A stretch of 42,175 nucleotides of DNA from positions 1-42,175 of the IMG/VR virus record IMGVR_UViG_3300009537_000050, one strand, 5' to 3'. Below are positions 20,794 through 42,175 of this stretch, piece after piece. Position numbers and translations under genes: made by a program. Positions within the stretch are counted from its first letter, which is position 1. The number at the start of each line of letters is the position of its first letter. Source of the DNA: a virus. Under the pieces are notes generated by a model. It worked only from the letters and a program-made list of their open reading frames with translations, had not been told where the DNA came from and ran no database searches.

Positions 20794-20943
20794 ACGACGT
20801 ATTTCATCTGTTTACCTGCGAATCCTTTGGACCTTAGAACGTATCCGCAGCGTATCGGCGGTCGAGTTAACCCCTCTCCGAAGGCGTTGGCCGCTCCTCA
20901 GCAAAGCGAGGCCGCCGATACGTTGCTTGCTGAGGAGAGGAAC

Positions 20944-22950
20944 GTGCCGACATACAGACAGCTAGTTGCGAAGAAGTTAGAAGAGAGTAGTCTTACAGCA
21001 GCGGACGCGAAAGCTCTAGGCATAGAGAGTCTAAGCGCTCAGGCGACGGCGAAACTTTTCAAGAAGTTCAAAGTGCCAGCGCTTCGACTTAACTATTATA
21101 GTACGGACGGCAAGAAACGACGTGACGTGTACCGCGTTCGTTTGCTTGAAAAACCGGTCGGTGCTTTTGGTAGCATTGCTGAAACCGCACCAAAGTATCT
21201 GCAACCCACAGGCTCTGTAGTCTCTGCTTACTTTCCACGAATCATCCCGTGGAGTGAAATTGTAGAGAACACAGAGGAGAGCATCATCATCACAGAGGGT
21301 GAACTCAAAGCTGCGTGTGCTTGCAAATACGGATGGTCGACCATCGGGCTTGGTGGCTGTTGGTCATGGCGGTCGTCTAAGAACGGCTGGTCACTTCTAC
21401 CTGAACTAGAACGGATTACATGGGAGGGAAGAGATGTCGTCATATGCTTCGACGATGACGCAGCGCAAAAAGCAGATGTCGCACAAGCTATCGTCTCACT
21501 TTGCGGAGCACTTACGAAGAGAGGCGCACTTCCACGTATCGCTGTTCTACCCTCTGTTCGAACCACTGGAAAGACAGGCATCGACGACTTCATCGTAGCT
21601 AAAGGACCTGAAGCATTCGGAGAGGTTCTGGATGAAGCAGACGGAGATGAACTCACGCATAAGCTCTGGGACTTCAACTCACGGTTTGCGGTTATTCTTG
21701 ACCCCGGTCTCGTTTACGACCAAAAGCGTCACGCTCGCTACAATCCCAGAGAGTTTAGGACAACGCTCTTTGCCAACGTCTGGGCAGCGAAGAGGGAGTT
21801 CACAGCTGACGGAACACCGAAGCTGAAGCAGACGCAAGTTGCTCCGACATGGGTTCAGTGGCCGACGCGCAGACAGTTCAGCCGACTCACCTATGACCCA
21901 GGAAAAGGACCTATCGTCGACGGCGCTCTAAATGGATGGGGCGGGTGGTCGACGGAACCAATAAAGGGTTCAGTAGAACCATGGAAGAGGCTTATCGACC
22001 TACTCTTCGAAGACGTTCCACGCGAAGCACGTCACTGGTTTGAATGCTGGTGCGCCTACCCTATTCGTTATCCAGGCACGAAGCTTCTCAGCGCTGTTGG
22101 TATCTGGTCTCATGAGCAGGGGGTCGGTAAGTCACTGGTCGGGGTAACGCTCAGCAAGATATACGGAGACAACTACATTGCCATCAGTCAGCGTGAGCTT
22201 GAGAGTGATTTCAATAGTTGGGCAGTGAACAAACAATTCGTCATGGTCGATGATGTATCGTCTCACGATTCACGTGCGAAGGCGGACGTCCTCAAGAAGA
22301 TAATCACGCAGCGTGAACTCGTCGTGAATATGAAGTACGTCCCAACCTACGTATTACCTGATAGAGCCAACTATTACCTGACGTCGAACAGACCGAATGC
22401 TTTTTATGTTGAAGAACGTGATAGGCGATTCTTCATTCACGAGGTTACGGGCGGAAGAAAGTCGACACAGTTCTATGACTCGTATTTCAAATGGCTCGAC
22501 ACAGATGGTGCGCGAGCTCTCTTTCACTACTTCAAGCATGAGTTGAACCTCGAGGGTTTCTCACCGTTCGAACCGCCGCCGTCAACGAAAGCGAAGCGTG
22601 AGATGGTGGACAGCGTAAAGACAGAGTTGACATTGTGGTTGACAGAGCTGCGAGAAATGCCTGAAGAGAAACTCAAGCTTGGTTCGCAGACGTTGACGCG
22701 TGACCTGTACACGCCTCGTGAACTGACGGAAATATTCGGACAGACGTGCAAGGGTAGACCCGTCGCGCCAAACGTTATGGGTCTACACCTGAGAGAATAC
22801 TTTGAACCTGTAGGCGTACTACGTTCAGGCGAATCAACGGGTCGGTACTACGCAGTGCGCAATGGTGAGAGATGGAAGAAGGCTACTAAGGTACAACTCA
22901 CGAAGCATTTGAAAGACTCACTCGCCGTCGACGGCGGGGGTAAATACTAG
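20944..22950 (+). CDS. Bifunctional primase-helicase (Toprim/DUF3854-like N-domain plus D5/P4-type SF3 NTPase)
   Basis: IIITEGELKAACACKYGWSTIGLGG is a Toprim-like acidic motif. Walker A GVGKS and Walker B FVMVDDV. The ORF track starts at TTG 20827. The in-frame GTG at 20944 has GAGGAGAGG just upstream. Confidence 0.8.
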   Translation: MPTYRQLVAKKLEESSLTAADAKALGIESLSAQATAKLFKKFKVPALRLNYYSTDGKKRRDVYRVRLLEKPVGAFGSIAETAPKYLQPTGSVVSAYFPRIIPWSEIVENTEESIIITEGELKAACACKYGWSTIGLGGCWSWRSSKNGWSLLPELERITWEGRDVVICFDDDAAQKADVAQAIVSLCGALTKRGALPRIAVLPSVRTTGKTGIDDFIVAKGPEAFGEVLDEADGDELTHKLWDFNSRFAVILDPGLVYDQKRHARYNPREFRTTLFANVWAAKREFTADGTPKLKQTQVAPTWVQWPTRRQFSRLTYDPGKGPIVDGALNGWGGWSTEPIKGSVEPWKRLIDLLFEDVPREARHWFECWCAYPIRYPGTKLLSAVGIWSHEQGVGKSLVGVTLSKIYGDNYIAISQRELESDFNSWAVNKQFVMVDDVSSHDSRAKADVLKKIITQRELVVNMKYVPTYVLPDRANYYLTSNRPNAFYVEERDRRFFIHEVTGGRKSTQFYDSYFKWLDTDGARALFHYFKHELNLEGFSPFEPPPSTKAKREMVDSVKTELTLWLTELREMPEEKLKLGSQTLTRDLYTPRELTEIFGQTCKGRPVAPNVMGLHLREYFEPVGVLRSGESTGRYYAVRNGERWKKATKVQLTKHLKDSLAVDGGGKY

Positions 22951-27444: not shown

Positions 27445-28266
27445 ATGGCAACGCGTAAGGGTAAAGAGAACAAGACCACAGCACTAGCTAAGTGGGATGA
27501 GAAGCTAGCGCAACAAGCAGCGGCGGCTGCTGAACAAGAAGCGTCTACTGGAGGTGGACAATTCTTCTCACTACGTGGAGGGAAGCTTTCGCTGGACGAG
27601 GCGCCAATCCCAAACAATGAAATCGCGTGTATCATCGTGGACTCTATCCTTGAGAATACGCATTACGAGGATGAGTTCAATGCGGATGATGTTCAGTCTC
27701 CTTCCTGTTTTGCCTTCGGACGAAGTGAAGGTGAGATGTCTCCTCACGAAGACGCTCCAGCCCCCGTTGACGAAAGCTGCGCTGAGTGCCCGAATAACAA
27801 ATTTGGAAGCGCAGATAGGGGGCGTGGAAAAGCATGTCGCAATCGTCGTAGGCTCGCTCTTATCCCATGCGGCACGCTCAAACGAGATGGTTCCTTTGAT
27901 GCGTTCGACGCAGAAGAACTGAAGTCGCAAACGGTTGCGTACCTAGGACTCCCGCCAACGAGCATCAATTCATTCGGCGCATATGTGAAGAAGCTGGCGT
28001 CGGTCATCAAACGACCGCCGCATGCAGTCTTCACCAAGATTTCACTGGTTGATGATTCGAAGACAATGTTCAAGTTGGTCTTCGAAGACTTGGGACCTGT
28101 GCCAAACGCTGCGCTTCCTGTGGTGATGGAGCTACACGATGCGCAGCGTGACGTCATAGGATTCCCATACCAACAACGTGAGGAGGAGGTTCAACCGAAG
28201 AAGCGTGGGAAGAAGACGTCACGCCGAGGAAGCAAGAAGACGACCTCACGACGCAGCAAGTATTGA
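27445..28266 (+). CDS. Zinc-knuckle protein with a basic C-tail; possible ssDNA-binding or recombination accessory protein (273 aa)
   Basis: Contains CAECPNNKFGSADRGRGKACRNRRRL and a KKRGKKTSRRGSKKTTSRRSK tail. Lies just upstream of the polymerase. The function is inferred from context only. Confidence 0.35.
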   Translation: MATRKGKENKTTALAKWDEKLAQQAAAAAEQEASTGGGQFFSLRGGKLSLDEAPIPNNEIACIIVDSILENTHYEDEFNADDVQSPSCFAFGRSEGEMSPHEDAPAPVDESCAECPNNKFGSADRGRGKACRNRRRLALIPCGTLKRDGSFDAFDAEELKSQTVAYLGLPPTSINSFGAYVKKLASVIKRPPHAVFTKISLVDDSKTMFKLVFEDLGPVPNAALPVVMELHDAQRDVIGFPYQQREEEVQPKKRGKKTSRRGSKKTTSRRSKY

Positions 28267-28276
28267 GAGGATTCCT

Positions 28277-30205
28277 ATGAGAGATGACCCCTGCAGGACA
28301 GCCGCCGTCGTTGACTTCGAATCTTTACCTATTCGCCAACGACCCCTTTACCCCCCAAAGGCGGTCGGCGTGGCTACGTGGATTCCAGGACAACGGGCAA
28401 AATACCTTGCGTGGGGTCATCTCTCAGGGAATAATTCTACGTGGTGTGCTGCGCGTCAACACCTCGGTGAACTCATCGACAGCGGCCGACCACTCATCTT
28501 TCAGAACGCGAAGTTTGACCTCTCAATCATAGAGGAAGAGTTTCAGCTCAAGCTTCCAGGGTGGGAACGTATATACGACACGTTACCTCTTATGTTCATC
28601 GATGAACCACGCGCGCCCACGTTCTCACTAAAGCCATCTGGTGAACGGATACTAGGTCGAGAACCTGACGAACGAGACGCTTTGGTTGATTGGCTCGTAC
28701 AACATCAGCCAGTCCCAGACATCAAACTTTCCGACAAGCAGAAGGGAAAGCACTACGCTGGTGCATACGTGGCATGGGCGCCACCGCATATCAGCGGACC
28801 GTATGCGTGTGAGGATACGCTCCTTGCAAGAGATATCTTCAGAAAGGTTTTCAGCCGCCTCGACGAACGTTCTTTAGAAGCCTATACCAGGGAGCGAAGA
28901 CTCCTTCCGCATATCATGGAGGCAGAGCGAAGAGGTATCCGTGTTGATGTCAAAAGACTCACACGCGATATCGAACAGGGTGAGAAGACGCTTATACGCG
29001 TTGATGGTTGGCTGAGGCTAAGACTCAAATGTAAAGACCTCAACATTGATTCAAGTCGTGAACTAGCTGCCGCATTGTTATCCTCAGGCGCAGCGTCGCG
29101 TGAACTTCTTGGCATTACATCCAGCGGTGAAATACAAACGAACAAAGAAGCGCTTGCACGTGGCGTCATAGATAAGCAAGTCCACGCAACACTGCGTTAC
29201 CGTTCACAACTCAGGACGTGTCTTCGTACCTTCATGATGCCGTGGCTTGAGACGGCGCTCGACTCCAATGGGTTTATCTACACAACCTGGCACACGACGA
29301 GGACTGAACGCAAGGGTGGTGGAGTCGGCGCAAGAACAGGTAGGCTCACAAGCACACCGAACTTTCAGAATATACCTGTGAGGTACGACCCACTCTTCAA
29401 GTCAGAGGAGAAGGGTTTACCACCCACACCGATACAGCTTCCACAACTACCACGCGTGCGTCAGTACATCATTCCAACAGAACGCGGTTGGGTACTCTGT
29501 GACCGTGACTATTCACAGCAGGAACTCAGAATCTTAGGGCACTTTGAGGACGGAGTATTAAGAGACGCGTACATCAAAGACCCTTGGTTAGACGTTCACG
29601 ACCACGCGCAGAAGCTCATCAATGGGATGCTTGGTACTAACTACAAGCGGAAGCCCGTAAAGAATACAGGCTTTGGAATCATCTACGGGATGGGTTTAGG
29701 AAAGCTAGCAGAGCAAACCAACTCCACTGTCGAACAAGCACAAAAACTCCGTCGTGCATACCTTTCAATTTTTCCAGGACTCAGGAGCCTTGACGATGAC
29801 CTCAAACGGAGAGCGCGGCAAGATGAACCACTTCGAACTTGGGGAGGACGTCTATACCACTGTGAGCCACCACGGTGGGTCGATGGTCGTATGCGAGATT
29901 ACGGATACAAGATGCTCAATCTTCTTATCCAGGGAAGTGCAGCTGATTGTACCAAAGAGGCATTTATCAGATACTGTGAGCGGAAACCAAAACATCATCA
30001 TGCGCTTCTTACCGTGCATGATGAGACGCTAGTATCTGTCCCGCGCGAAGAGCGTAGGGAATGCATGGAACTTTTGAAGTCATGTATGGAAGACGTCGAC
30101 TTCGATGTTCCGATGTTGAGTGAAGGAACATGGTCATCAAAATCGTGGCACGAACTTCGTGATTATGATGTGAAAGGAAAGTTGAAATGCCGGTCCGACG
30201 CCTAA
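28277..30205 (+). CDS. Family A DNA polymerase with 3'-5' exonuclease domain (642 aa from the ATG)
   Basis: Exo motifs VDFES, NAKFDL, YACEDT. Pol motifs DYSQQELRIL (A), RKPVKNTGFGIIYGMG (B) and VHDE (C). The ATG at 28277 has GAGAGG upstream, whereas the ORF track start at 28178 overlaps the upstream gene. Confidence 0.92.
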   Translation: MRDDPCRTAAVVDFESLPIRQRPLYPPKAVGVATWIPGQRAKYLAWGHLSGNNSTWCAARQHLGELIDSGRPLIFQNAKFDLSIIEEEFQLKLPGWERIYDTLPLMFIDEPRAPTFSLKPSGERILGREPDERDALVDWLVQHQPVPDIKLSDKQKGKHYAGAYVAWAPPHISGPYACEDTLLARDIFRKVFSRLDERSLEAYTRERRLLPHIMEAERRGIRVDVKRLTRDIEQGEKTLIRVDGWLRLRLKCKDLNIDSSRELAAALLSSGAASRELLGITSSGEIQTNKEALARGVIDKQVHATLRYRSQLRTCLRTFMMPWLETALDSNGFIYTTWHTTRTERKGGGVGARTGRLTSTPNFQNIPVRYDPLFKSEEKGLPPTPIQLPQLPRVRQYIIPTERGWVLCDRDYSQQELRILGHFEDGVLRDAYIKDPWLDVHDHAQKLINGMLGTNYKRKPVKNTGFGIIYGMGLGKLAEQTNSTVEQAQKLRRAYLSIFPGLRSLDDDLKRRARQDEPLRTWGGRLYHCEPPRWVDGRMRDYGYKMLNLLIQGSAADCTKEAFIRYCERKPKHHHALLTVHDETLVSVPREERRECMELLKSCMEDVDFDVPMLSEGTWSSKSWHELRDYDVKGKLKCRSDA

Positions 30206-30885
30206 ACAAAATCTCAGCGTGGAGCTACTCTCGATTGACGACGTATGAGAAGTGTGCCTTCCGTGCGTTCTGCCTGTACGTTCTCAAGAAAAAAGAACCT
30301 CAGGCACCTGCGATGAAGCGCGGTAGTGATATCCACGAGCTAGCTGAGAACTATGTCAAAGCGTCTCGTGTACCGAGAAAAATTCCAGAAGCGTTGTGGC
30401 GCTTTGAGGATGAGTTCAAAGAACTTCGAAAGGCCTACCACCGAAGAAAAGGCAAGAACCACTTTGTAGAACTTGAGGCGCAGATTGCGGTCGACGACAA
30501 GTGGGGCTGCGTTGATTGGTTCGACGACTTCGCGTGGCTGCGCGCGAAGATTGACGTGCTTGAGGTGAACGGGGTATTTGCTGAAGTCAAAGACCACAAA
30601 ACAGGAAGGCAGCGTCCTGAGAACGTCGACCAGTTAGAGTTGTACGCTATTGCCATATTCTGCAAATACCCGTTTGTGGAAACCGTCAACGCAAGCTTCT
30701 GGTATTTGGACGAGGGTGTGATTGACGCGAAGAACTTTGCGCGTCATGAACTAGACAGTCTCAAAAAGAAATGGCTGAAGCGAATCAAACCCATGATGAA
30801 CGACACGACGTTCAAGCCTAAGCCATGTTACCTATGCAAGTGGTGTAAGTTCTCGAAGGAGGAAGGCGGACCGTGCAAATTTTAG
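30187..30885 (+). CDS. PD-(D/E)XK Cas4/RecB-like exonuclease with a Cys cluster
   Basis: N-terminal Cys (YEKCAFRAF), IDVLEV...EVKDHKTG (D..E.K), QLELYA, and C-terminal CYLCKWCKF...GGPC. Confidence 0.8.
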   Translation: MPVRRLNKISAWSYSRLTTYEKCAFRAFCLYVLKKKEPQAPAMKRGSDIHELAENYVKASRVPRKIPEALWRFEDEFKELRKAYHRRKGKNHFVELEAQIAVDDKWGCVDWFDDFAWLRAKIDVLEVNGVFAEVKDHKTGRQRPENVDQLELYAIAIFCKYPFVETVNASFWYLDEGVIDAKNFARHELDSLKKKWLKRIKPMMNDTTFKPKPCYLCKWCKFSKEEGGPCKF

Positions 30886-31178
30886 AATCAACGATTGAGC
30901 GAAAGTTCGTTGACCGCGTGAGGGAGGAGTTCAATATTGAGACACTAAAACTTGAACTTAGACACAACGCCGGCTGGCCTGACAGGTTGCTCCTCATCCC
31001 CGGAGGTCGTCCGCTATTCATAGAGTTCAAGAGACCTGGAGAGGACCTTGGAACACTGCAACGATATCGTCATGACGTACTTAGAGAGCTTGGGTATGAG
31101 GTTCGAACATTCGACCGTGTATCCTCAGCTATGCTCTACGTCAGACAAATCATGGCAACCGCACGCGTACCAACGTAA
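30873..31178 (+). CDS. VRR-NUC domain nuclease (101 aa)
   Basis: ERKFVDRV...GWPDRLLLIPGGRPLFIEFKRPGE...Q matches the VRR-NUC core (D..E.K). GTG start with GGAGGAAGG upstream. Confidence 0.75.
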   Translation: MQILESTIERKFVDRVREEFNIETLKLELRHNAGWPDRLLLIPGGRPLFIEFKRPGEDLGTLQRYRHDVLRELGYEVRTFDRVSSAMLYVRQIMATARVPT

Positions 31179-32547
31179 AGCGGTCACGTGGCTCGTTAAG
31201 AGAGCTGAAGCGGCGCTCTTCCTCGACCCTGGTCTTGGCAAGACTGCTGCTACACTACGTGCGTTCCTCGCCCTAAAGAAAGCGGGCGTCGCAGGGAAGA
31301 TGTTGGTCATCGCGCCGAAGCGTCCGTGCTATTTGGTATGGAGTCATCGCGGTGAGATAGGCAAATGGAAAGACTTCAGACATCTTACCGTATCGTTACT
31401 CCATGGTCCGAATAAAGAAGGCGCGCTGGAAGAGGATGCTGATATCTATGTCATCAACCATGATGGGCTTCGGTGGCTTTGTGAACCTAAGCGTGTTCGG
31501 AAGCTCATCAAACGCGGCGTTAAGCTTGTTGTCATCGATGAGCTTTCGAAGTTCAAACATCCGCGGACGATGAGATTCAAAGCGTTCAAGAAGTGGCTTG
31601 GGTGTTTCCCACGCCGGTGGGGCTTAACAGGTTCTCCAGCGTCTAATGGACTGATTGATTTATTCGGGCAGGTGTACGTCCTGGATAAAGGTCGTCGACT
31701 CGGCCAATATATTACCCACTATAGGTATCAGTATTTCTATCCAACTGGTTTCGGTGGGTATCAGTATGCGCTGCAGGACGGGGCAGAGAAACGGATTTAC
31801 AAGAAGCTCAAAGACCTAGCCTTGTCAATGAAAGCTGAAGACCACCTAGACCTTCCCCAGCTAGTAGAACGAGACATCTACGTCACGTTGCCCAGTAAAG
31901 CTGGAACGCTGTACCGTCAGATTGAGGAGGACTTCTTCGCACTCTATGATAAGGATGTGGTAGTTGCAGCCAATGCAGCAGTTGCTAGCGGTAAATGTAG
32001 GCAGGTTGCATCTGGTGGAATATACGTTGAACGCAGTAACAAGAAACGCGTTACACGATTTATCCACAATGAAAAGACAGAGGCTCTTGTCGACCTCGTT
32101 GATGAACTTCAAGGCGCGCCGTTACTGGTCGGATATGAATTCCAACACGACCTTGAAAGAATCCGCGAGGCGTTGGGTAAGAATACACCGGCAATCAGTG
32201 GGAGTATGGGAGACCGTGAACTAATACGCGTTGTCGACAAATGGAATGACGGGAAGATTCCCGTACTATGCGCCCATCCAGCCGCGGCCGGACATGGATT
32301 GAATCTTCAAGGTTCATCATGTAGCCACGTCTGCTGGTACTCGCCCACGTGGGACTTCGAACTATACGACCAATTTATCCGACGCGTGTGGAGACAGGGG
32401 ACGAAAGCCTCTAGGACAATAGTCCATCGAATCATCGCGCACAACACTCTTGATGAAGTCGTCATCAAAGCGTTACGCTCTAAGCAACGACGGCAGGACG
32501 CGCTCATGTCGGCGCTTAAAAAATATCGTAGTTCAAGGGTTCTCTAA
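31048..32547 (+). CDS. SNF2-family helicase/translocase
   Basis: Motifs: PHAYQ, LDPGLGKT (I), VIDELSKF (II), GHGLNLQ (V), Q..RR.WRQG (VI). The start is uncertain: TTG 31048, ATG 31072 or ATG 31096. Every option overlaps the VRR-NUC gene. Confidence 0.85.
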   Translation: MEHCNDIVMTYLESLGMRFEHSTVYPQLCSTSDKSWQPHAYQRKAVTWLVKRAEAALFLDPGLGKTAATLRAFLALKKAGVAGKMLVIAPKRPCYLVWSHRGEIGKWKDFRHLTVSLLHGPNKEGALEEDADIYVINHDGLRWLCEPKRVRKLIKRGVKLVVIDELSKFKHPRTMRFKAFKKWLGCFPRRWGLTGSPASNGLIDLFGQVYVLDKGRRLGQYITHYRYQYFYPTGFGGYQYALQDGAEKRIYKKLKDLALSMKAEDHLDLPQLVERDIYVTLPSKAGTLYRQIEEDFFALYDKDVVVAANAAVASGKCRQVASGGIYVERSNKKRVTRFIHNEKTEALVDLVDELQGAPLLVGYEFQHDLERIREALGKNTPAISGSMGDRELIRVVDKWNDGKIPVLCAHPAAAGHGLNLQGSSCSHVCWYSPTWDFELYDQFIRRVWRQGTKASRTIVHRIIAHNTLDEVVIKALRSKQRRQDALMSALKKYRSSRVL

Positions 32548-32599
32548 GGTCAGTTCATTTGCTATCCGGAGGGTATCTCTAACAGCTGAGGAGTTAGCT

Positions 32600-33385
32600 A
32601 TGGCAAAGAAGACTATGCGCAAGAAGGTGTCGAAGAAGGTGTCGAAGAAGGTGTCGAAGAAGGTGTCGAAGAAACGTGTTGCTGTGAAGAAACAACCTGA
32701 ACCGGTTATTCGTAGCCAAAAGGTTGTGAAGAAAAGGAGTGGTCTACCGGCGACAGTTACGAAGACCTTCACCCACCACGTCGATGTACCGAAGCCAACA
32801 GAAGCTCAGGCAGAAGCCCGCAAAAAGGCGTTCGTTGCAATAGACCACGAACAACGCACGTGTATTGCTTTTCACAGAACGGCCGGACAAGTAACGTTCA
32901 CGTGCCATTCAGAGAATGGTTTCACACTTGAGACCTGGCCGTCGAAAGATTTTGATGAGGTTTACAAAAAGGTTGAGGATTACCCCGTCGGCAGAGCTGC
33001 TGTCCTCTACGTGGAATTCGCCACTGTGATGGGCGCTGACGACGAGGTGATGGATAAGTTGACCACGTTGGTCAACGTTTCAAAGAAGGAGTTGGAGATG
33101 ACGAAGAAGAAGCCAGTGAAGAAGAGTGCTGCAAAGGGTCAGTCTCGTACGGCCCGTGTGAAGGGCGCGAAGGAAGCAAAGAAGGCTTCTGCCCCACGCC
33201 AGGCGAAAGACTCTGCGTCCAGTATGTTTCGCGAACTCATCATGCAGGGCAAGCTCACGGACGACCAGATTTTTGAGCGCGTCCAGAAGAAGTACGGGCT
33301 GGACGAAAAGAAGCGTAGCTACGTCTCCTGGTACCGCAATCAACTCACAAAGATGGGGAAGAACCCACCGAAGGCGAAGAAGTAG
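32600..33385 (+). CDS. Lys-rich histone-like protein, paralogue of 25756..26079 at the C-terminus (261 aa from the ATG)
   Basis: The ATG at 32600 has GAGGAG upstream. The N-terminal (KKVS)x4 is encoded by a 12-bp tandem repeat. The C-terminal SSMFRELIMQGKLTDDQIF...SWYRNQL aligns with SSVARELIRQGQTNAQIW...SWYRSKM. Confidence 0.7.
   Translation: MAKKTMRKKVSKKVSKKVSKKVSKKRVAVKKQPEPVIRSQKVVKKRSGLPATVTKTFTHHVDVPKPTEAQAEARKKAFVAIDHEQRTCIAFHRTAGQVTFTCHSENGFTLETWPSKDFDEVYKKVEDYPVGRAAVLYVEFATVMGADDEVMDKLTTLVNVSKKELEMTKKKPVKKSAAKGQSRTARVKGAKEAKKASAPRQAKDSASSMFRELIMQGKLTDDQIFERVQKKYGLDEKKRSYVSWYRNQLTKMGKNPPKAKK
32621..32668 (+). repeat. Perfect 4 x 12-bp in-frame tandem repeat (AAGAAGGTGTCG)
   Basis: Read directly from the sequence. 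It encodes KKVSKKVSKKVSKKVS. Confidence 0.9.
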
Positions 33386-33411: not shown

Positions 33412-33446
33412 GACGGGCGGGGCTAACTACCTCGCCCGTCCTTTTG
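33412..33446 (+). terminator. Intrinsic terminator candidate separating the replication genes from the modification operon
   Basis: GACGGGCGGGG...CCTCGCCCGTC stem (one mismatch) followed by CTTTTG. A GAGGAG RBS for the next gene follows. Confidence 0.5.
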
Positions 33447-33460
33447 CTGAGGAGTAGAAA

Positions 33461-34345
33461 ATGAACAAAGCTGGAAAGTCCGTCGACACGACCCACCTAC
33501 CACTGGCAAAGCATACGTCCATCCGTGGTTACATCCACAGAGACTACCTCGCCCATTGTCTTCGCTATTCGCATGTAGCGAAGTTCATGAATCAACAACG
33601 TAGGTACCAACATTCACACCTACTCGACGTAGGTTGTGGAAGAGAGACTCCACTTGCTCGTCTCATGTATTCAATGAGGATGACGCATAAGACGGGAACC
33701 TATACGGGTGTGGATTATGGAAAAGTGGACTGGCCAGACTCGATGCCAGATAAGCCGAAGAACTTTAATATGAAGCTCATTGAGCGGACGGACTTCGTGG
33801 AGGCGAAACTGCCGCGAAAGAAGTTTAACGTTGGAGTCTGCTTCGAAGTCGTTGAACACGTCGAACCGTTCCACGCATATCAGATTCTCAAACGCCTACG
33901 CCAGTCACTGAGAAGTACAGGAACGGCGTTCATCTCCACGCCCGTATACGACCCTCGCGTCGGAGCTGCTGGGAACCACGTCAATGAGATGTCGTTCGAA
34001 GCGATGTATGCGATGCTCATCTTGGCGGGCTTTGCGGTCGTCGGTAAGTGGGGAACGTTCGCCTCACAGAGGGATTACAAAGATGAACTCAGTAGCTTTA
34101 CAGGTGTGCGTGGAGTCTTTGATGCGTTGAGCGCATACTACGATTCGAACACGCTTGCCTGTATCTTCGCCCCGCTGTTCCCTCAACAGTCACGTAATGT
34201 TCTGTGGCGCGTAAAGGCGATAGGCGATTGTGGAGATGTATTCCACGGTGAGGCTATTAGGAACCTTCGGCGGAAGGTTCATTCCAGTTCCACAAAGTGG
34301 ACCAAAGAATTCTCAAAAATCATTCGCGACGTTTCGTGTTCCTAA
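33461..34345 (+). CDS. Class I SAM-dependent methyltransferase, substrate unknown (294 aa)
   Basis: Motif I LLDVGCGRETP, post-I acidic YTGVDYG, and VCFEVVEHV. No DPPY or PC motif typical of DNA base MTases. Confidence 0.7.
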   Translation: MNKAGKSVDTTHLPLAKHTSIRGYIHRDYLAHCLRYSHVAKFMNQQRRYQHSHLLDVGCGRETPLARLMYSMRMTHKTGTYTGVDYGKVDWPDSMPDKPKNFNMKLIERTDFVEAKLPRKKFNVGVCFEVVEHVEPFHAYQILKRLRQSLRSTGTAFISTPVYDPRVGAAGNHVNEMSFEAMYAMLILAGFAVVGKWGTFASQRDYKDELSSFTGVRGVFDALSAYYDSNTLACIFAPLFPQQSRNVLWRVKAIGDCGDVFHGEAIRNLRRKVHSSSTKWTKEFSKIIRDVSCS

Positions 34346-34357
34346 AGGAGGACCAAC

Positions 34358-35422
34358 ATGTACGCTGTAGCTGGTGACGTATTCGCAGGACTTTTCGCCT
34401 ACGGAATCCGACGTGCTGGATTCAGAGTCGATACACATCTTGCCCATACGGATTATGGGATTGAGATGTACAAGGCTAACTTCAAATCCCACGACGTTCG
34501 GATTGGAAAGGAGAACTGGGACCTGTCAAAGCTTCGACGCAAGGAGCGTCCACATTTGTTCTTTACTAACCCACCATGTGCTCCGTGGTCGAACGCCGGT
34601 CACGGGTCGCGCTTCCGAAAAGGCGAGGCGAAGGACGATAGGCCTGAGTGGATTATCGACCTCATGAATGCTGCGTTTGAAATGCGTGCTGATACGTGGG
34701 TCTGGGAAAGCGTTACCGAGGCGTGGCGTCGTGGACAGGACTTCGTTCTTTCGCGCGCCGAGGAGTGTCTCAGTCACGGGTATAGCGTCACAGTTCTTCT
34801 CCAGAACAACCTCTACCTCGGCGCTCCGCAAAACCGTCGACGTATGTTGTTCATCGCCCACAGATATCCAATCGTATTCCCGCGGTTCAAGCTAAAGCAT
34901 CCAACGGTGCGCGAAGTTCTCAAGGGCGTAAGTCCAGGAAGCACTGTAGGGTGCGACATCTCTCCAAAAGAATGGTCTCTTTACTCAGCGGTAGGCAAAG
35001 AAGGCGGTCCGCTATCCGCTCATTACTCCAACAAGATGACGGACAAAGAACGTAAGCGGATTGATATTACACCTGGAATGAAACCGTCATTCTTGGCACG
35101 CCGTCTGGCTAACGATAAGACGTGCCCTGTGTTTATCAAGAATACGTTTACCTATCACCCAACGCTTCCACGGTATACGACGTGGAACGAAGGTCTTGCA
35201 CTTGCTGGCGCTCCGAAAACATGGAAGCGTACAGCGTCCAACCTCGTTGACAATACCCATCTCCTCGGCCGCGGAGTCCTTCCTGCCGTCGGCAAGTGGA
35301 TTGGGACGGCTGTCGCGACGGGTATCAAGACAGGTTCGCGGATACCAAAACGCGAACGATGCGTCATGCTCTGTGACTTCAGAAAGATGTCGAACATCAT
35401 CGAGGAAAGGATTGACCTATGA
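34358..35422 (+). CDS. DNA cytosine-C5-methyltransferase-like enzyme with a degenerate SAM loop (354 aa)
   Basis: Motif IV FTNPPCAPWSNAG, motif VI WESV (ENV-like), motif VIII QNRRRMLF, motif X GRGVLPAVGKWIG. Motif I reads DVFAGLFAYG in place of FxGxGG. AAGGAGG RBS. Confidence 0.7.
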   Translation: MYAVAGDVFAGLFAYGIRRAGFRVDTHLAHTDYGIEMYKANFKSHDVRIGKENWDLSKLRRKERPHLFFTNPPCAPWSNAGHGSRFRKGEAKDDRPEWIIDLMNAAFEMRADTWVWESVTEAWRRGQDFVLSRAEECLSHGYSVTVLLQNNLYLGAPQNRRRMLFIAHRYPIVFPRFKLKHPTVREVLKGVSPGSTVGCDISPKEWSLYSAVGKEGGPLSAHYSNKMTDKERKRIDITPGMKPSFLARRLANDKTCPVFIKNTFTYHPTLPRYTTWNEGLALAGAPKTWKRTASNLVDNTHLLGRGVLPAVGKWIGTAVATGIKTGSRIPKRERCVMLCDFRKMSNIIEERIDL

Positions 35423-35820
35423 GTTACCAAGACAAAGAGTGTCGAGACCTCCGTGCGTTCAACGCGCGTTTCGGCGTTGAGACGAGTAGGAAACCAACGT
35501 TACTTGTCGATGAGCGAAACAAGGAGAGAATGTATCTCATTGATGAGGAAGCGGATGAGTTGTTCAAGGCGTTTCAACAACGCGACGTTGTTGAAATCGC
35601 GGATGCCCTCATCGACCTCGCATACGTCATCAAAGGAACCGCTGTTATGATGGGTCTTCCGTGGGAAGAGTTGTGGACAGAGGTTCATCAAACAAATATG
35701 GCGAAGGTCCGAAAGACAACGGACCGCGCGAAGATTGATGTTCAGAAACCAGAAGGTTGGAAACCACCGGACGTCAGTGGAATTTTGAAGTCCGCGGGGT
35801 GGGAGGAAGACAATGGGTGA
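35419..35820 (+). CDS. MazG-like all-alpha nucleoside triphosphate pyrophosphohydrolase (133 aa)
   Basis: Metal-binding pattern IDEEADEL ... EIADALIDLAYV. ATGA coupling to the upstream gene. Confidence 0.7.
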   Translation: MSYQDKECRDLRAFNARFGVETSRKPTLLVDERNKERMYLIDEEADELFKAFQQRDVVEIADALIDLAYVIKGTAVMMGLPWEELWTEVHQTNMAKVRKTTDRAKIDVQKPEGWKPPDVSGILKSAGWEEDNG

Positions 35821-36784
35821 GTTCTGCAAAACGGTCACTATCTTTGAAGGTCCTGACGGAAGCGGTAAGACGACAGCAGCTGCGTACTACGCCGACGTTA
35901 TAGGCGCACGCTACGTTCATCTAGGTCCGTTTACCGGCGTCAACCGATGTCTTGCCCGTCTCTACATCGAGGCTATGCTTCCAGCGTTGTACGGGTATCA
36001 GGACGTGGTACTCGACCGTTCATGGTTGAGTGAGGGAATCTACGGAGCCGTGTATCGTGACGGCGCGGATAGGATTCGTGCGTGGCGTCGACGAATGTTG
36101 GAACGTGTAGCGATGAAGTGTGAAGCTCAGGTTGTCCTCTGCCTTCCCGGAATCAATAGATGCGTTTCAAACTTCAACGCGCGTAGAAACCTTGGTGGAG
36201 AATACCTGGATACTGAAGACCACCTTCGGGCTGTTTATCTTGGATACGAGGAGGCGCACGAATCAGGAGAATTTACTGACCTCCAAACGCACCTTTACGA
36301 TTACGAAACGAACTCAGAAACAGACCTCAAGGAGTTGCGCGGCACTCATCCTACGCACCCAGTGCGCGACGTTACGGGAGGAAACCTTGATGCTCCGTTC
36401 GTTATCGTTGGAGATAGCGTTGAAGCTACGCGAGAGCATGACTCACTGTTCAAAGCGCCGTTCGTATCTTTCGGCGGAAAGTGTAGCGCCGCTTGGATTA
36501 CCTCTCGCCTGCAAGCTGCGAAAATCAAGGAGCACGAACTTCTGTGGATTTCCACAGAGAACAACTGCCTCGAACACGTGGAAGAACTTTTGGATACAGC
36601 TCCGCGTGAACACGTCTTCGCACTTGGGCGGGACGCAGCGTTGCTGTTAGCTGATACTGAGTACCCTTTCATGATGGTTAACCACCCTCAACACGCCCGT
36701 AAATTCGGGATGAACAAGGGTTACAAACTCATCAAAGCAATTTTGAAAGTGCGTACGTTGAAAGCGCTAGGGGGTAATAGGTAA
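35813..36784 (+). CDS. Fusion of a thymidylate-kinase-like dNMP kinase with a UDG-fold domain (323 aa)
   Basis: N-terminal domain: IFEGPDGSGKTT P-loop and LDRSWLS (DR motif). C-terminal domain: APFVIVGDSVEATREHDSLFKAPFVSFGG and VNHPQHARKF are laid out like UDG family 4 motifs A (GEAPG...PFVG.AG) and B (HPS...), but with the catalytic motif altered. Confidence 0.6.
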   Translation: MGEFCKTVTIFEGPDGSGKTTAAAYYADVIGARYVHLGPFTGVNRCLARLYIEAMLPALYGYQDVVLDRSWLSEGIYGAVYRDGADRIRAWRRRMLERVAMKCEAQVVLCLPGINRCVSNFNARRNLGGEYLDTEDHLRAVYLGYEEAHESGEFTDLQTHLYDYETNSETDLKELRGTHPTHPVRDVTGGNLDAPFVIVGDSVEATREHDSLFKAPFVSFGGKCSAAWITSRLQAAKIKEHELLWISTENNCLEHVEELLDTAPREHVFALGRDAALLLADTEYPFMMVNHPQHARKFGMNKGYKLIKAILKVRTLKALGGNR

Positions 36785-37605
36785 TGAGAGCCCTGGTTGG
36801 AGACGAGGCCTGGAGAAACCAACTTGCACGTATCATAGAACATGGTCGCGAGACCTCTCCGCGCAGTCAGGATACGTTGGAGATTCTTCAAGATACGAAT
36901 ATCCACATCGATATGAATAGTCCGGTTGTAACGACACCGGATAGGAAACTCAACTATCGATTCATGTGCGCTGAAGCTCTGTGGATTTTGGGAGGAGATA
37001 ACAGACTGGAACCGTTGACACGTTTCATCAAACGGATGGCGAAGTTCTCTGACGACGGCGAGACGCTCGCGGGAGCGTACGGTCCGAAGATAATTCCACA
37101 ACTCAACTACGTCGTCAGTAAACTTTTAGAAGATAAGGACACGCGTCAAGCAGTCTTGACAATTTGGGAGAGAAACCCGCAACCGTCGAAAGACATTCCA
37201 TGTACTGTCTCGATGTCCTTCACGATACGTAATGGGCTCCTCAACCAACACGTCTATATGAGGTCCTCAGATACGTGGCTTGGAATTCCTTACGACATGT
37301 TTTCATTCGCCTGCGTAGGTTTACGCGTAGCGTGCGAATACAATGAACGTCGAATCTATGTCCAGGGTTATAGGCATGGAACGGTGCTTCCAGGAACGTT
37401 GACGATTTCTCCAACGTCTTCGCACCTCTATATGAAGGACTGGCAGAAAGCAAAAGACATTCTGTTCAAGCCCGTCCCGCAGGATATCGAACCCGTGCCA
37501 AACGAGATTATCAAGTATGGGCGGTTCGATTACATCCAACGGTCACTCCTAGCTGTACGCGAAGGGCAAAGACTTTCGCCAGACATGTGGAGGTGCGTAC
37601 CATGA
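36784..37605 (+). CDS. Thymidylate-synthase-family pyrimidine-C5 enzyme with Asp at the Asn177-equivalent position (dCMP hydroxymethylase/methylase candidate)
   Basis: CAEALWILGG (Glu58 region), IPCT (catalytic Cys), and YMRSSDTWLGIPYDMFSF aligned to ThyA YQRSCDVFLGLPFNIASY. Confidence 0.75.
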   Translation: MRALVGDEAWRNQLARIIEHGRETSPRSQDTLEILQDTNIHIDMNSPVVTTPDRKLNYRFMCAEALWILGGDNRLEPLTRFIKRMAKFSDDGETLAGAYGPKIIPQLNYVVSKLLEDKDTRQAVLTIWERNPQPSKDIPCTVSMSFTIRNGLLNQHVYMRSSDTWLGIPYDMFSFACVGLRVACEYNERRIYVQGYRHGTVLPGTLTISPTSSHLYMKDWQKAKDILFKPVPQDIEPVPNEIIKYGRFDYIQRSLLAVREGQRLSPDMWRCVP

Positions 37606-38156
37606 GAATGACGCGCGAAGAGTGGGCGCTCCGTATCGCTGAGGTTGTGGCGATGCGTGCTACGTGTGTGCGTCGACGGGTCGGTTGTGTTCTAACAGAC
37701 AAACATGGTCGAATCCTAGCGACGGGGTACAACGGGGTTGCCACAGGACTTCCACACTGCACTGAAGGACATCCCTGCAAAGGAGCTAACGCGAAGACGG
37801 GGGAGGACCTCGACAACTGTGAGGCTATCCATGCAGAACAGAACGCGCTGCTCCAATGTCAGGATACTCAGAGGATTCACACGTGTTACGTTACGGTATC
37901 TCCATGCATTACGTGTACCAAGCTATTGCTCAACACGTCATGTAGGCGTATCGTATTCATTGAGATGTACGGCGGAGAACCGTGTCCAAGGGAGCTTTGG
38001 AAAAGAAGCGACGACCGGAGACTTTGGTTCTCTGAGCGTTTGAGGACGGAGGTGCAACATGTTAAACAGGGCGGAGAAAGACCGCCCGCACCTTCCGACC
38101 ACGACGACAATCCTGAGATTCCAGATTACGGAAACCTCACGTACTGGCGTTGCTAA
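37602..38156 (+). CDS. dCMP deaminase (184 aa from the coupled ATG)
   Basis: HAEQNAL and PCITCTKLL zinc motifs in a ComEB/dCMP-deaminase layout. The ATG at 37602 overlaps the upstream stop (ATGA) and has GGAGGT 7 nt upstream. Confidence 0.85.
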   Translation: MRMTREEWALRIAEVVAMRATCVRRRVGCVLTDKHGRILATGYNGVATGLPHCTEGHPCKGANAKTGEDLDNCEAIHAEQNALLQCQDTQRIHTCYVTVSPCITCTKLLLNTSCRRIVFIEMYGGEPCPRELWKRSDDRRLWFSERLRTEVQHVKQGGERPPAPSDHDDNPEIPDYGNLTYWRC

Positions 38157-38431
38157 TGTCTCAACGCGGCGAAATCTCTCGCGCTGCGGAGCGAGAATTG
38201 AAACGGCTCTATAGAGGTCAGTCGCGTGTGGTTGAAGATATCAATTGGAATCTGATGGGTGCTTTGACACGACGCGAGTTTGTAACAGTGGATTACCGCT
38301 CGCGTCGTGTCACGCTCACCTACCTGGGCAAGACTGTAGCGCTAGGAATCATTTGTCGCGAAACCCACCAGACTGGATGTTGTCCTGCGAGGCTTAGACC
38401 TGTACGCAAGGAAACGCTCCCACGGGAATAG
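38156..38431 (+). CDS. Hypothetical small protein, possibly winged-helix-like (91 aa)
   Basis: TAATG coupling to the deaminase. The last about 30 codons overlap the 3' end of the convergent endolysin gene. Confidence 0.45.
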   Translation: MSQRGEISRAAERELKRLYRGQSRVVEDINWNLMGALTRREFVTVDYRSRRVTLTYLGKTVALGIICRETHQTGCCPARLRPVRKETLPRE

Positions 38432-39010
38432 CGGTCCAGGGTCCATCTTCCTACCGAACGGCATTCCTACCTCCTCGTGTCCTACGAGGTCGACCAGATA
38501 CCCTGCCTCAGAGAGCTTCGCTAGAAGCTCCTCCAGACCCGCTAGTTGCGCCTCTGGAAACGGCTCCCAGTAGCCTACGATACGACGCCCGTCATCGTAC
38601 TCTAGCGCCGCAGAAATAGGCCTAGGGCCGTCGTAGCGATATAACCGACCTGCTACCTCGTACCAGAACCCTCCGACGTCCCTAGTCAGCATTCCGAGGT
38701 TCGCTAGCTCGATACCGATAGAGAATCGGTTGACGTTCGAACAGGTCTCTCCGCGGTACGTCCATTCAGATGCTCCTGCGTGCCAAGCAGCTTTGTCGAG
38801 ACGTACGAGCTGCGCTTGTAGTCCATCACGGAACACGTAGAAGTGCGACGACCGTTTAGCCTTGGGCGTACAAAGCCAACCGGCGTTACGTCTCCCGTCA
38901 GAACCCGCGTCATAATGGATAACAGTTGTCTCAGGTTCGTACCCGTCACGACCGGAACAGTTCGGCGAATTACGGTGGACGAGTCCACCAATGAGTGGTT
39001 CTTTCACCAT
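38342..39010 (-). CDS. Endolysin, N-acetylmuramoyl-L-alanine amidase (Amidase_2/PGRP type)
   Basis: VIHYDAGS...HFYVFRDG...AWHAG...NRFSIGIELAN...HEEV...DPGPLFPW follows the T7-lysozyme-type pattern. The first ATG is at 39010; the ORF track uses TTG 39076. Confidence 0.85.
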   Translation of the reverse strand: MVKEPLIGGLVHRNSPNCSGRDGYEPETTVIHYDAGSDGRRNAGWLCTPKAKRSSHFYVFRDGLQAQLVRLDKAAWHAGASEWTYRGETCSNVNRFSIGIELANLGMLTRDVGGFWYEVAGRLYRYDGPRPISAALEYDDGRRIVGYWEPFPEAQLAGLEELLAKLSEAGYLVDLVGHEEVGMPFGRKMDPGPLFPWERFLAYRSKPRRTTSSLVGFATNDS

Positions 39011-39230
39011 CTGTATCTTACCCCCGCGACAGCCCCCGCGTTCCAATCTTTCCAGGTTGCATCGTACGATGTCCAAGCAGAACCCGTGATTGATAACGCA
39101 CGCGACACGCGCGCCTCGAGGTCCAACGACATTCTGGGTCCACGCTTATCGGCACCCGCAACAAAGTCTAAGGTCCCGGAACCCGGGACCAAAGACGTTT
39201 CTGCGTTGTCCAATTTTGCGTAGACCCCTT

Positions 39231-41971: not shown

Positions 41972-42175
41972 TACTCTACCTGACCAACTATGTTCTTACC
42001 GACTAGAACCGCGTCGCCTGGCGTAGCCGTTGCGAGACCTAGGGCCATAGCGTGGAACTCCCCAGCACCGTCGCCACGCCATGCACAGACGCGGACGATA
42101 TCGGCACGGTTACCGGCCCAAACGTTAGCGGCAATGAACGCATCAGCAATCGAAGCCGCTTGCGCTCCGGTGATA
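41971..42175 (-). CDS. 3' part of the 107-aa wrap-around ORF (continues from 1..218)
   Basis: The frame is continuous across the junction 1/42076. The TAA at 41973-41971 overlaps the ATG of the next gene. Confidence 0.6.
   Translation of the reverse strand, partial: ITGAQAASIADAFIAANVWAGNRADIVRVCAWRGDGAGEFHAMALGLATATPGDAVLVGKNIVGQVE
42077..42175. repeat. Second copy of the 99-bp terminal direct repeat
   Basis: Exact match to bases 1-99. Confidence 0.95.

Follow-up and report, generated by a model that had tools for sequence, protein, structure and literature searches.

What does a tightly coupled six-gene operon do for the virus recorded in IMG/VR as IMGVR_UViG_3300009537_000050? We analysed this record over its whole length of 42,175 nucleotides (hereafter the window), and the operon, whose genes we number g1 to g6 (Table 1), encodes in order a class I S-adenosylmethionine (SAM) methyltransferase, a homologue of C5 DNA methyltransferases, a MazG-type nucleoside triphosphate (NTP) pyrophosphatase, a fusion of a thymidylate-kinase-like domain with a uracil-DNA glycosylase (UDG) fold, a homologue of thymidylate synthase (ThyA), and a deoxycytidine monophosphate (dCMP) deaminase. 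A preliminary description, made from the letters of the DNA, had proposed a logic like that of phage T4 and a 5-substituted cytosine in the virion. At sequence level this proposal is supported by the residues of g5, by the linkage of the genes in a recurring cassette, and by the restriction resistance of phage AXL3, a cultured carrier of that cassette. We consider it probable, with good confidence, that the core of the operon replaces deoxycytidine (dC) at the nucleotide level. With more reserve, we favour a predicted route in which 5-hydroxymethyl-dC takes the place of dC before replication and is then tailored by g1 and g2.

The argument begins with g5. Direct motif extraction gave KDIPC, RSSD and GIPYD, which supply Asp143, Cys146, Asp169 and Asp177 in E. 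coli numbering. The catalytic Cys lies in a Pro-Cys context (KDIPCT) equivalent to E. coli Cys146, and the dCMP-specificity Asp announced in the preliminary description is present as Asp177, within GIPYD in g5 versus GLPFN in E. coli. According to a 2026 NAR paper, a change of Asn177 to Asp switches the ThyA substrate to dCMP, a change of Leu143 to Asp or Glu accompanies formation of a hydroxymethyl instead of a methyl product and concerns water access, and a change of Asp169 to Asn is the mark of flavin-dependent 5-hydroxy-dCMP synthases; positions 143, 169 and 177 together separate dCMP hydroxymethylases from thymidylate synthases and 5-hydroxy-dCMP synthases. All 91 cassette ThyA homologues examined carry Asp177, and 89 of the 91 carry Asp143, three residues before the Cys, and repeat the full four-residue pattern of the window enzyme. 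Among solved structures, the CMP hydroxymethylase MilA is closest to g5 (8.5e-20). We predict that g5 is a folate-dependent dCMP hydroxymethylase. Two neighbouring activities were considered for it and rejected: a 5-hydroxy-dCMP synthase of the RB69 gp48 type, because RSSD retains Asp169, and a dCMP methylase of the XP12 type, because residue 143 is Asp rather than hydrophobic. Leu143 combined with Asp177 was found in two loci only, L045 (IMG/VR UViG_3300033070_000995) and L048 (UViG_3300049569_000086), where it looks like the signature expected of an XP12-like dCMP methyltransferase; in both, the same kinase-UDG fusion and the deaminase adjoin the ThyA homologue, and g1 and g2 are missing.

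The company that g5 keeps is equally regular. We fetched 80 viral loci through an alignment of the kinase, added loci reached through homologues of g1 and g2, and scored 94 loci by tblastn. A close group of 57 loci, in siphovirus-like and podovirus-like genomes, has ThyA homologues 39-55% identical to g5. Kinase and ThyA homologue are present in 57 of these 57 loci and MazG and deaminase in nearly all, together with g1 in 45, g2 in 10 and the UDG domain in 45. As this gene order recurs on dozens of independent contigs, it is not a product of chance. Every combination was seen: the core alone, the core with g1, the core with g2, and the core with both. The four-gene core (g3-g6) of the pathway first described thus stands, whereas g1 and g2, which had been counted among its obligatory parts, are optional add-ons. 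Homologues of the kinase-UDG fusion number more than 300 and lie on phage-sized contigs. A DNA-level search against phages returned a single weak match, and the cassette family is visible at the protein level only. In one Pam3-like genome (L090, 9255-10502), a 415-aa protein fuses the ThyA homologue to the dCMP deaminase, further evidence that both act together.

Some relatives depart from the common layout. One locus (L041, 3210-4220) has an N6/N4 DNA methyltransferase gene of the DPPY type between the kinase fusion and the ThyA homologue. A second clade of about 35 IMG/VR loci (L051-L088) encodes a related kinase with another C-terminal extension and a divergent ThyA homologue (~26% identity) that also has Asp143 and Asp177; g1 and the deaminase are absent nearby, and MazG occurs in few of these loci, several kb off. 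This clade may be a separate cytosine-modification module.

Among named phages, the order g1-g3-g4-g5-g6 is found in Stenotrophomonas phage AXL3 (NC_071036), Pseudoxanthomonas phage PW916 and two uncultured Manatee Spring phage genomes, at 29-51% protein identity. All of them lack g2, and the genes are annotated as thymidylate-synthesis enzymes. AXL3 DNA withstood 35 of 37 restriction enzymes, namely all those tested with G/C in their sites, and was cut by TasI (AATT) and Tru1I (TTAA) only; its authors attributed this to a modification of G or C, which they did not identify (AXL3 paper). The phage also has a separate ThyX gene. Our literature search returned no identified modification for AXL3 or PW916. 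The MetaGPA study (eLife 2021, PMC8670742) reported that ThyA, PRA-PH and dCMP deaminase co-occur specifically on modified-cytosine contigs, so the link of these three families to modified cytosine is already known. Given the resistance of AXL3 and the MetaGPA co-occurrence, the core is best read as replacing dC at the nucleotide level. The MetaGPA phages with 5-carbamoyloxymethylcytosine resemble the window in setting core enzymes beside an enzyme that tailors the hydroxymethyl group. They differ in using a carbamoyltransferase, where the present cassettes have a SAM methyltransferase and/or a C5-methyltransferase homologue, and the kinase-UDG fusion is not described there.

T4 replaces dC by means of gp56 (dCTPase/dUTPase), gp42 (dCMP hydroxymethylase), gp1 (deoxynucleoside monophosphate kinase) and cd (dCMP deaminase), followed by glucosyltransferases. 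The window shares with T4 the same four predicted activities, a ThyA-family enzyme with Asp177 and Asp143, and tailoring on a hydroxymethyl handle. It differs in that its kinase, unlike gp1, resembles thymidylate kinase and carries a fused UDG fold, that its NTPase is a small PRA-PH/MazG protein near DR2231, that the pathway's genes are packed into a single operon in a siphovirus-like genome of 42 kb, and that tailoring falls to methyltransferase folds rather than glucosyltransferases. In g6, a cytidine deaminase fold carries the zinc motifs HAE (AIHAEQN) and PCxxC (SPCITCTK), with solved relatives that include 2HVV (7e-17) and T4 cd. The product of g3 is an all-alpha NTP pyrophosphohydrolase with a PRA-PH domain, whose nearest solved relative is the dUTPase DR2231 (6e-12). 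It had been cast in the role of gp56, and its family is confirmed; because DR2231 is dUTP-specific, we infer rather than assign its dCTPase activity, and regard g3 as a presumptive dCTP/dUTP pyrophosphatase.

The fusion of a thymidylate-kinase-like domain with a UDG fold, claimed for g4, is borne out by a PHROG match, by Foldseek on both domains and by scattered Pfam matches, although the two halves had to be approached separately. The N-terminus belongs to the thymidylate-kinase family phrog_761 (5e-14), and its P-loop FEGPDGSGKTT and DR motif LDRSW are invariant among homologues. A full-length AlphaFold model built with 46 homologues (pLDDT 94) led Foldseek to thymidine monophosphate kinases and deoxynucleoside kinases at ~1e-6. 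In every cassette the ThyA homologue beside the kinase is dCMP-specific, whether of hydroxymethylase or of methylase type, and we infer that the N-terminal domain is a 5-hydroxymethyl-dCMP kinase. A DNA kinase like 5-hydroxymethyldeoxyuridine (5-hmdU) DNA kinase, 5-HMUDK, was considered for g4 and is not supported: the domain is thymidylate-kinase-like, and the HMUDK_hel domain belongs to a separate gene in L040. Nor did g4 show close relatives in phages known for thymidine hypermodification.

The whole g4 protein has no Pfam match, and sequence searches against PDB, with the single sequence or with a C-terminal profile, gave nothing useful. Because the full-length model returned kinases only, the UDG fold came to light through a separate model of residues 176-323 (pLDDT 86), whose best Foldseek matches are family-4 UDGs and UdgX (1L9G at 2.4e-5, 1UI0, 4ZBY and UdgX; E 2e-5 to 1e-3, TM 0.5-0.6). 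Pfam UDG is touched by 7 of 28 homologous C-terminal domains. The domain has its own motifs, VG[DE] (VG[DE]xF), Pro-Phe, Asn and HPQ, and in place of the family-4 hallmarks (GE[AG]PG motif A, HPS motif B and four Fe-S Cys) it retains a single conserved Cys. On the modelled structure and these motifs, the C-terminal domain is a relative of the UDG fold and not a family-4 member. One podovirus-like genome encodes a stand-alone 188-aa kinase.

If the core yields a hydroxymethylated nucleotide, what follows may be read from the genes just upstream of g3. Between the gene for a Lys-rich protein and MazG lies a slot whose occupants vary, and g1 is the commonest of them. In loci without g1, this slot holds a protein with a 5-hmdU-DNA-kinase helical domain (HMUDK_hel, 1e-43; L040), a TET-associated-glycosyltransferase-like protein (6.9e-6) with a nucleotidyltransferase (L095), a weak match to a pyridoxal phosphate enzyme with two unknown proteins (L037 and L069), or a weak glycosyltransferase-like match (L034). 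In characterised systems such enzymes act on 5-hydroxymethylpyrimidine in DNA, and their presence supports both a hydroxymethyl product and a slot for interchangeable decorations. Phages with thymidine hypermodification or TET enzymes (5-HMUDK with aGPT-Pplase; C5-methyltransferase with TET and TAGT) likewise deploy variable DNA-level enzymes on 5-hydroxymethylpyrimidine, and loci related to the window carry HMUDK_hel-like and TAGT-like slot genes. The window differs from those systems in that its modified base is predicted to be cytosine, changed at the nucleotide level, with no TET and no recognisable DNA kinase encoded in the window.

The g1 family is strongly conserved in phages, with many invariant polar residues and more than 900 homologues in metagenomes. 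Its blocks are an N-terminal HRDY-AH-R, a GCG SAM loop, FEVxEH, STPxYD, NHVNE and a C-terminal FAPLxP-RN. Glu129, Glu132 and His133 (ExxEH) are invariant and align with EVIEH of Hen1 (3JWG) and EMLEH of UbiG; in Hen1 the ExxEH residues bind the catalytic metal. Profile searches against PDB returned UbiG (5e-9), a rickettsial protein lysine methyltransferase and bacterial Hen1 (2e-5). With the metal-dependent O-methyltransferases of the Hen1, UbiG and TrmR type, g1 thus shares the class I fold and ExxEH, but the similarity covers the core fold only (E ~1e-5 to 1e-9), and only the phage family has the extensions at both termini, in which His, Arg, Asp and Asn residues are invariant. CmoA, the carboxy-SAM synthase, was rejected as an identity for g1, since NCBIfam and the PDB profile search did not return CmoA and g1 mostly occurs without g2. 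In every context examined, g1 lies directly upstream of the core, and in the cultured-phage collection it is confined to cassette phages. It accompanies hydroxymethylase-type ThyA homologues (45 loci) and neither of the two methylase-type loci. Because g1 is found only beside hydroxymethylase-type cassettes, we propose tentatively that it may O-methylate the 5-hydroxymethyl group, at either the nucleotide or the DNA level, with 5-methoxymethylcytosine as the product; the idea is worth stating but still short of an even chance.

g2 presents a puzzle of another kind. Its family keeps NPPC with the catalytic Cys (in all 30 aligned homologues), the motif VI Glu, QxRxR (QNRRR in the window) and an HP-PR-LT motif. 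Across the family, FxGxGG of canonical C5-methyltransferases has become FAGxF[TSA]xG (FAGLFAYG in the window), ENV has become ESV, and the Gly-Asn of motif X has become [SG]-Arg. Arg305 of g2 aligns with Asn304 of M.HhaI, Arg350 of SpCmoX and the corresponding Asn of HaeIII; this position is Arg in 24 of 30 relatives, Gln in the six most distant ones and Asn in none. A profile of the g2 family matches the SpCmoX structure 8YF3 at 2.7e-24. In CmoX, the carboxylate of carboxy-SAM is bound by Arg350, the residue equivalent to Asn304 of M.HhaI, and this Arg together with SPPC defines the family (PMC12783734). The preliminary description was right on the homology of g2 to C5-methyltransferases (PF00145); its remark that the combination was not one recognised from T4, SPO1, XP12 or the thymidine-hypermodifying phages needs qualifying for g2, as the Arg is a hallmark of CmoX, described in 2025. 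The close g2 clade lies inside the cassette in 12 of 12 contexts, including loci where a glycosyltransferase-like gene replaces g1, and a distant Gln-type relative lies outside it. A natural g2-g1 fusion of 689 aa occurs in L005 (810-2879) with FAGGFTVG, NPPC and the motif X Arg; the public gene call for this fusion starts too late and omits motif I.

The route that we favour would run as follows. The g3 enzyme would turn dCTP, and probably dUTP, into the monophosphate, and g5 would hydroxymethylate dCMP at C5 with methylene-tetrahydrofolate. The kinase domain of g4 would then phosphorylate 5-hydroxymethyl-dCMP, host enzymes would complete the triphosphate, and the family-A DNA polymerase of the phage would incorporate 5-hydroxymethyl-dCTP in place of dC, while g6 would deaminate some of the dCMP to dUMP and so feed thymidylate synthesis. 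As a metal-dependent Hen1/UbiG-like O-methyltransferase, g1 would methylate the 5-hydroxymethyl oxygen. The CmoX-like g2 could add a second layer, either by carboxymethylating or methylating unreplaced cytosines or by acting on 5-hydroxymethylcytosine. The UDG-fold domain may bind a flipped or free pyrimidine, for quality control against uracil-type bases or for coupling the kinase to DNA; this guess is the least supported part of the model.

Several observations weigh against this route or parts of it. Each of g1 and g2 is found without the other, and some cores have neither, so replacement requires neither gene. The evidence for O-methylation by g1 consists of fold, motif and synteny; alcohols accept methyl groups poorly, and 5-methoxymethylcytosine is unreported in the literature that we searched. 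The dUTP specificity of DR2231 makes depletion of dCTP by g3 less certain, and the AXL3 digests point to a modification at the level of G/C and not to a particular base or group. Twelve of the 57 cassettes do without the UDG-fold domain, whose window copy has substitutions at two near-invariant positions (Q214K and N247S). For g2 the points are more numerous: motif I lacks its Gly-rich loop, the ribose-binding Glu present in 29 of 30 homologues is replaced by Ala29 in the window copy, and no CmoA is encoded, as g1 is not CmoA-like and the replication module has no other methyltransferase-fold gene. Moreover, complete replacement would leave no free C5, which makes a role for g2 logically awkward. 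Three possible targets can be named for it: unreplaced cytosines, the side chain of 5-hydroxymethylcytosine, or other DNA.

The first of these targets leads to the rival that survives best, in which g2 is a true CmoX that uses host carboxy-SAM on unreplaced cytosines, so that the DNA would carry two C5 modifications. The Arg at the R350 position, the catalytic Pro-Cys, the conserved Glu and Arg-x-Arg, and the strong profile match to 8YF3 all speak for it, and the CmoA/CmoX/CmoY system of Synechococcus phage S-B43 (Nat Commun 2025, PMC12783734; 8YF3) shares with the window both Arg in place of the motif X Asn and a partner of class I methyltransferase fold. The differences from S-B43 are nonetheless considerable: g2 has NPPC instead of the defining SPPC and a degenerate motif I, g1 is not CmoA-like, the window encodes no CmoY-type amide ligase, and g2 sits in a nucleotide-level hydroxymethyl-dC cassette, a setting that the CmoX paper does not mention. 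Together with the loss of the ribose-binding Glu from the window copy, and the strict linkage of g2 to a pathway that leaves few free C5 positions, these differences lead us to regard a true CmoX as somewhat unlikely.

The second target suggests a bolder view, which we hold to be improbable: the close g2 clade would be a repurposed scaffold that flips 5-hydroxymethylcytosine and acts on its side chain, rather than a C5 alkyl-transferase, and the virion base would be new to nature. The retained Cys would activate the exocyclic carbon for substitution, or a group from a carboxylated SAM analogue would be placed on the hydroxyl and then methylated by g1. The tRNA route from ho5U through cmo5U to mcmo5U offers a parallel for the latter. 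If this view were true, it would add a new reaction type to the C5-methyltransferase fold, and g1 alone would give 5-methoxymethylcytosine.

Tailoring of the hydroxymethyl group by g1 and g2 could also be denied altogether while the core is kept. The core would make 5-hydroxymethyl-dC, g1 would be a Hen1-like RNA 2'-O-methyltransferase or a small-molecule methylase directed against host defences, and g2 an ordinary or decaying methylase. This would suit the solved relatives of g1 (UbiG, protein lysine methyltransferases and Hen1), the occurrence of the core without g1 or g2, and the missing ribose-binding Glu of the window g2. It accords poorly with the constant position of g1 upstream of the core and its restriction, among cultured phages, to those with the cassette, with the 12 of 12 cassette contexts of the close g2 clade, with the g2-g1 fusion and with the lack of a Hen1-type RNA-binding domain in g1, and we judge it decidedly improbable. 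We consider it more doubtful again that g5 is a dCMP methyltransferase and the phage replaces dC by 5-methyl-dC in the manner of XP12, with g1 and g2 adding methyls: Asp177 is common to this chemistry, a genome fully substituted with 5-methylcytosine would likewise resist most enzymes with G/C sites, and L045 and L048 resemble such a variant, but the window enzyme and 88 others have Asp143, the two Leu143 loci lack g1 and g2, and the glycosyltransferase-like and 5-hmdU-kinase-like slot genes require a hydroxyl handle. Plain pyrimidine salvage for dTTP supply and uracil exclusion, with g1 and g2 as ordinary anti-restriction methyltransferases, is the least credible reading, for although each core enzyme has a counterpart in dTMP synthesis (as the AXL3 authors annotated the cluster), g3 is nearest to a dUTPase and a UDG fold suits uracil exclusion, the dCMP and hydroxymethyl residues Asp177 and Asp143 are present in all or nearly all of the 91 g5 homologues, AXL3 has its own ThyX and DNA that resists cutting at G/C sites throughout, the Asn and Gly loop of genuine methylases are missing from g2, and the slot in other loci holds hydroxymethylpyrimidine-tailoring enzymes. 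Replacement of dC by 5-hydroxymethyl-dC, followed by tailoring, remains the reading that we prefer.

The layout of the operon agrees with its first description (Table 1). The open reading frame (ORF) list and the hairpin confirm six ORFs on the plus strand at the positions claimed, and all six fold assignments were upheld by Pfam, PHROG and NCBIfam, with Foldseek in addition for g4. Coupling by overlaps or by gaps of at most 12 nt holds at all five junctions: g1 is preceded by a GAGGAG ribosome-binding site, a 12-nt gap with AGGAGG separates g1 from g2, g2 and g3 overlap by ATGA, g3 and g4 by 8 nt, and g4 and g5 by TAATG. The g5/g6 junction is an ATGA overlap if g6 starts at ATG 37602, which has GGAGG 8 nt upstream and is more likely to be the start than the listed GTG 37587. 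The public (JGI) gene call gives g1 226 aa; the 294-aa ORF is the real gene, as homologues align across its full length. A seventh coupled ORF of 91 aa may follow g6. A family search with it returned no match, and it overlaps the 3' end of a convergent gene (38342-39076) by about 90 nt; it is possibly a real gene.

Table 1. Coordinates of the operon and of other features in the window
Feature	Position	Strand	Details
Direct terminal repeat	1-99 and 42077-42175		exact, 99 bp
Primase	20827-22950	+	
Family-A DNA polymerase	28178-30205	+	
PD-(D/E)XK exonuclease	30187-30885	+	
SNF2 helicase	31048-32547	+	
Lys-rich protein gene	32450-33385	+	KKVS repeats; just upstream of operon
Terminator-like hairpin	33412-33440	+	between Lys-rich gene and g1; 11-bp stem, 9 G-C pairs, then CTTTTG
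g1, class I SAM methyltransferase	33461-34345	+	Methyltransf_23, 2e-9
g2, C5 DNA methyltransferase homologue	34358-35422	+	PF00145, 4.6e-16
g3, PRA-PH/MazG pyrophosphohydrolase	35419-35820	+	PF01503, 1.4e-15
g4, kinase/UDG-fold fusion	35813-36784	+	N-terminal domain 35813-36340, C-terminal domain 36341-36784
g5, ThyA homologue	36784-37605	+	Thymidylat_synt, 5.4e-19
g6, dCMP deaminase	37602-38156	+	PF00383 dCMP_cyt_deam_1, 3.7e-19
Candidate seventh coupled ORF, 91 aa	38156-38431	+	TAATG overlap with g6

The exact terminal repeat indicates that the window is a complete genome of ~42.1 kb, circularly closed or terminally redundant. Structural and lysis genes occupy the minus strand and the replication module the plus strand. 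Many related loci (among them L007, L027, L036, L040 and L048) have counterparts of the Lys-rich protein in this place, which share the C-terminal motif RELIMxGKLTDxQIF...WYRxxLxKxGxNPP. A family search with this protein gave no match; it may be a histone-like DNA-binding protein. The window contains no GATC site on either strand, against 184 +/- 13 expected from dinucleotide-preserving shuffles, and GATC is the sole 4-bp palindrome so depleted there. GATC is also avoided in two cassette loci, L077 (0 versus 54 expected) and L015 (6 versus 53 expected), and is not avoided in AXL3 or in other loci with g2. This pattern suggests that the host has a nuclease targeting GATC against which the base modification gives no protection. 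Avoidance caused by g2 itself was rejected, as other g2 loci over-represent GATC.

In summary, the system would work like the T4 pathway and that of the MetaGPA carbamoyl phages, uses a CmoX-like scaffold, and is an evolutionary neighbour of the modules that tailor hydroxymethylpyrimidine. It stands apart from these by the kinase-UDG fusion, tailoring by methyltransferase folds, a C5-transferase homologue coupled with replacement at C5, and the predicted final base. The cassette is widespread, with its core on hundreds of metagenomic phage contigs and in at least two cultured phages, and the base behind the resistance of AXL3 to essentially all G/C-recognising enzymes receives a concrete prediction, one that points to SAM-dependent tailoring of a hydroxymethyl handle rather than transfer of a sugar, carbamoyl group or amine. 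It also poses a puzzle, because its CmoX-like C5-transferase keeps strictly to a pathway in which C5 is already taken. Epigenetic sequencing chemistry and the building of restriction-proof therapeutic phages would profit from new enzymes that attach small, defined groups to 5-hydroxymethylcytosine, and the cassette calls for re-annotation of public phage genes now labelled thymidylate synthase and thymidylate kinase.

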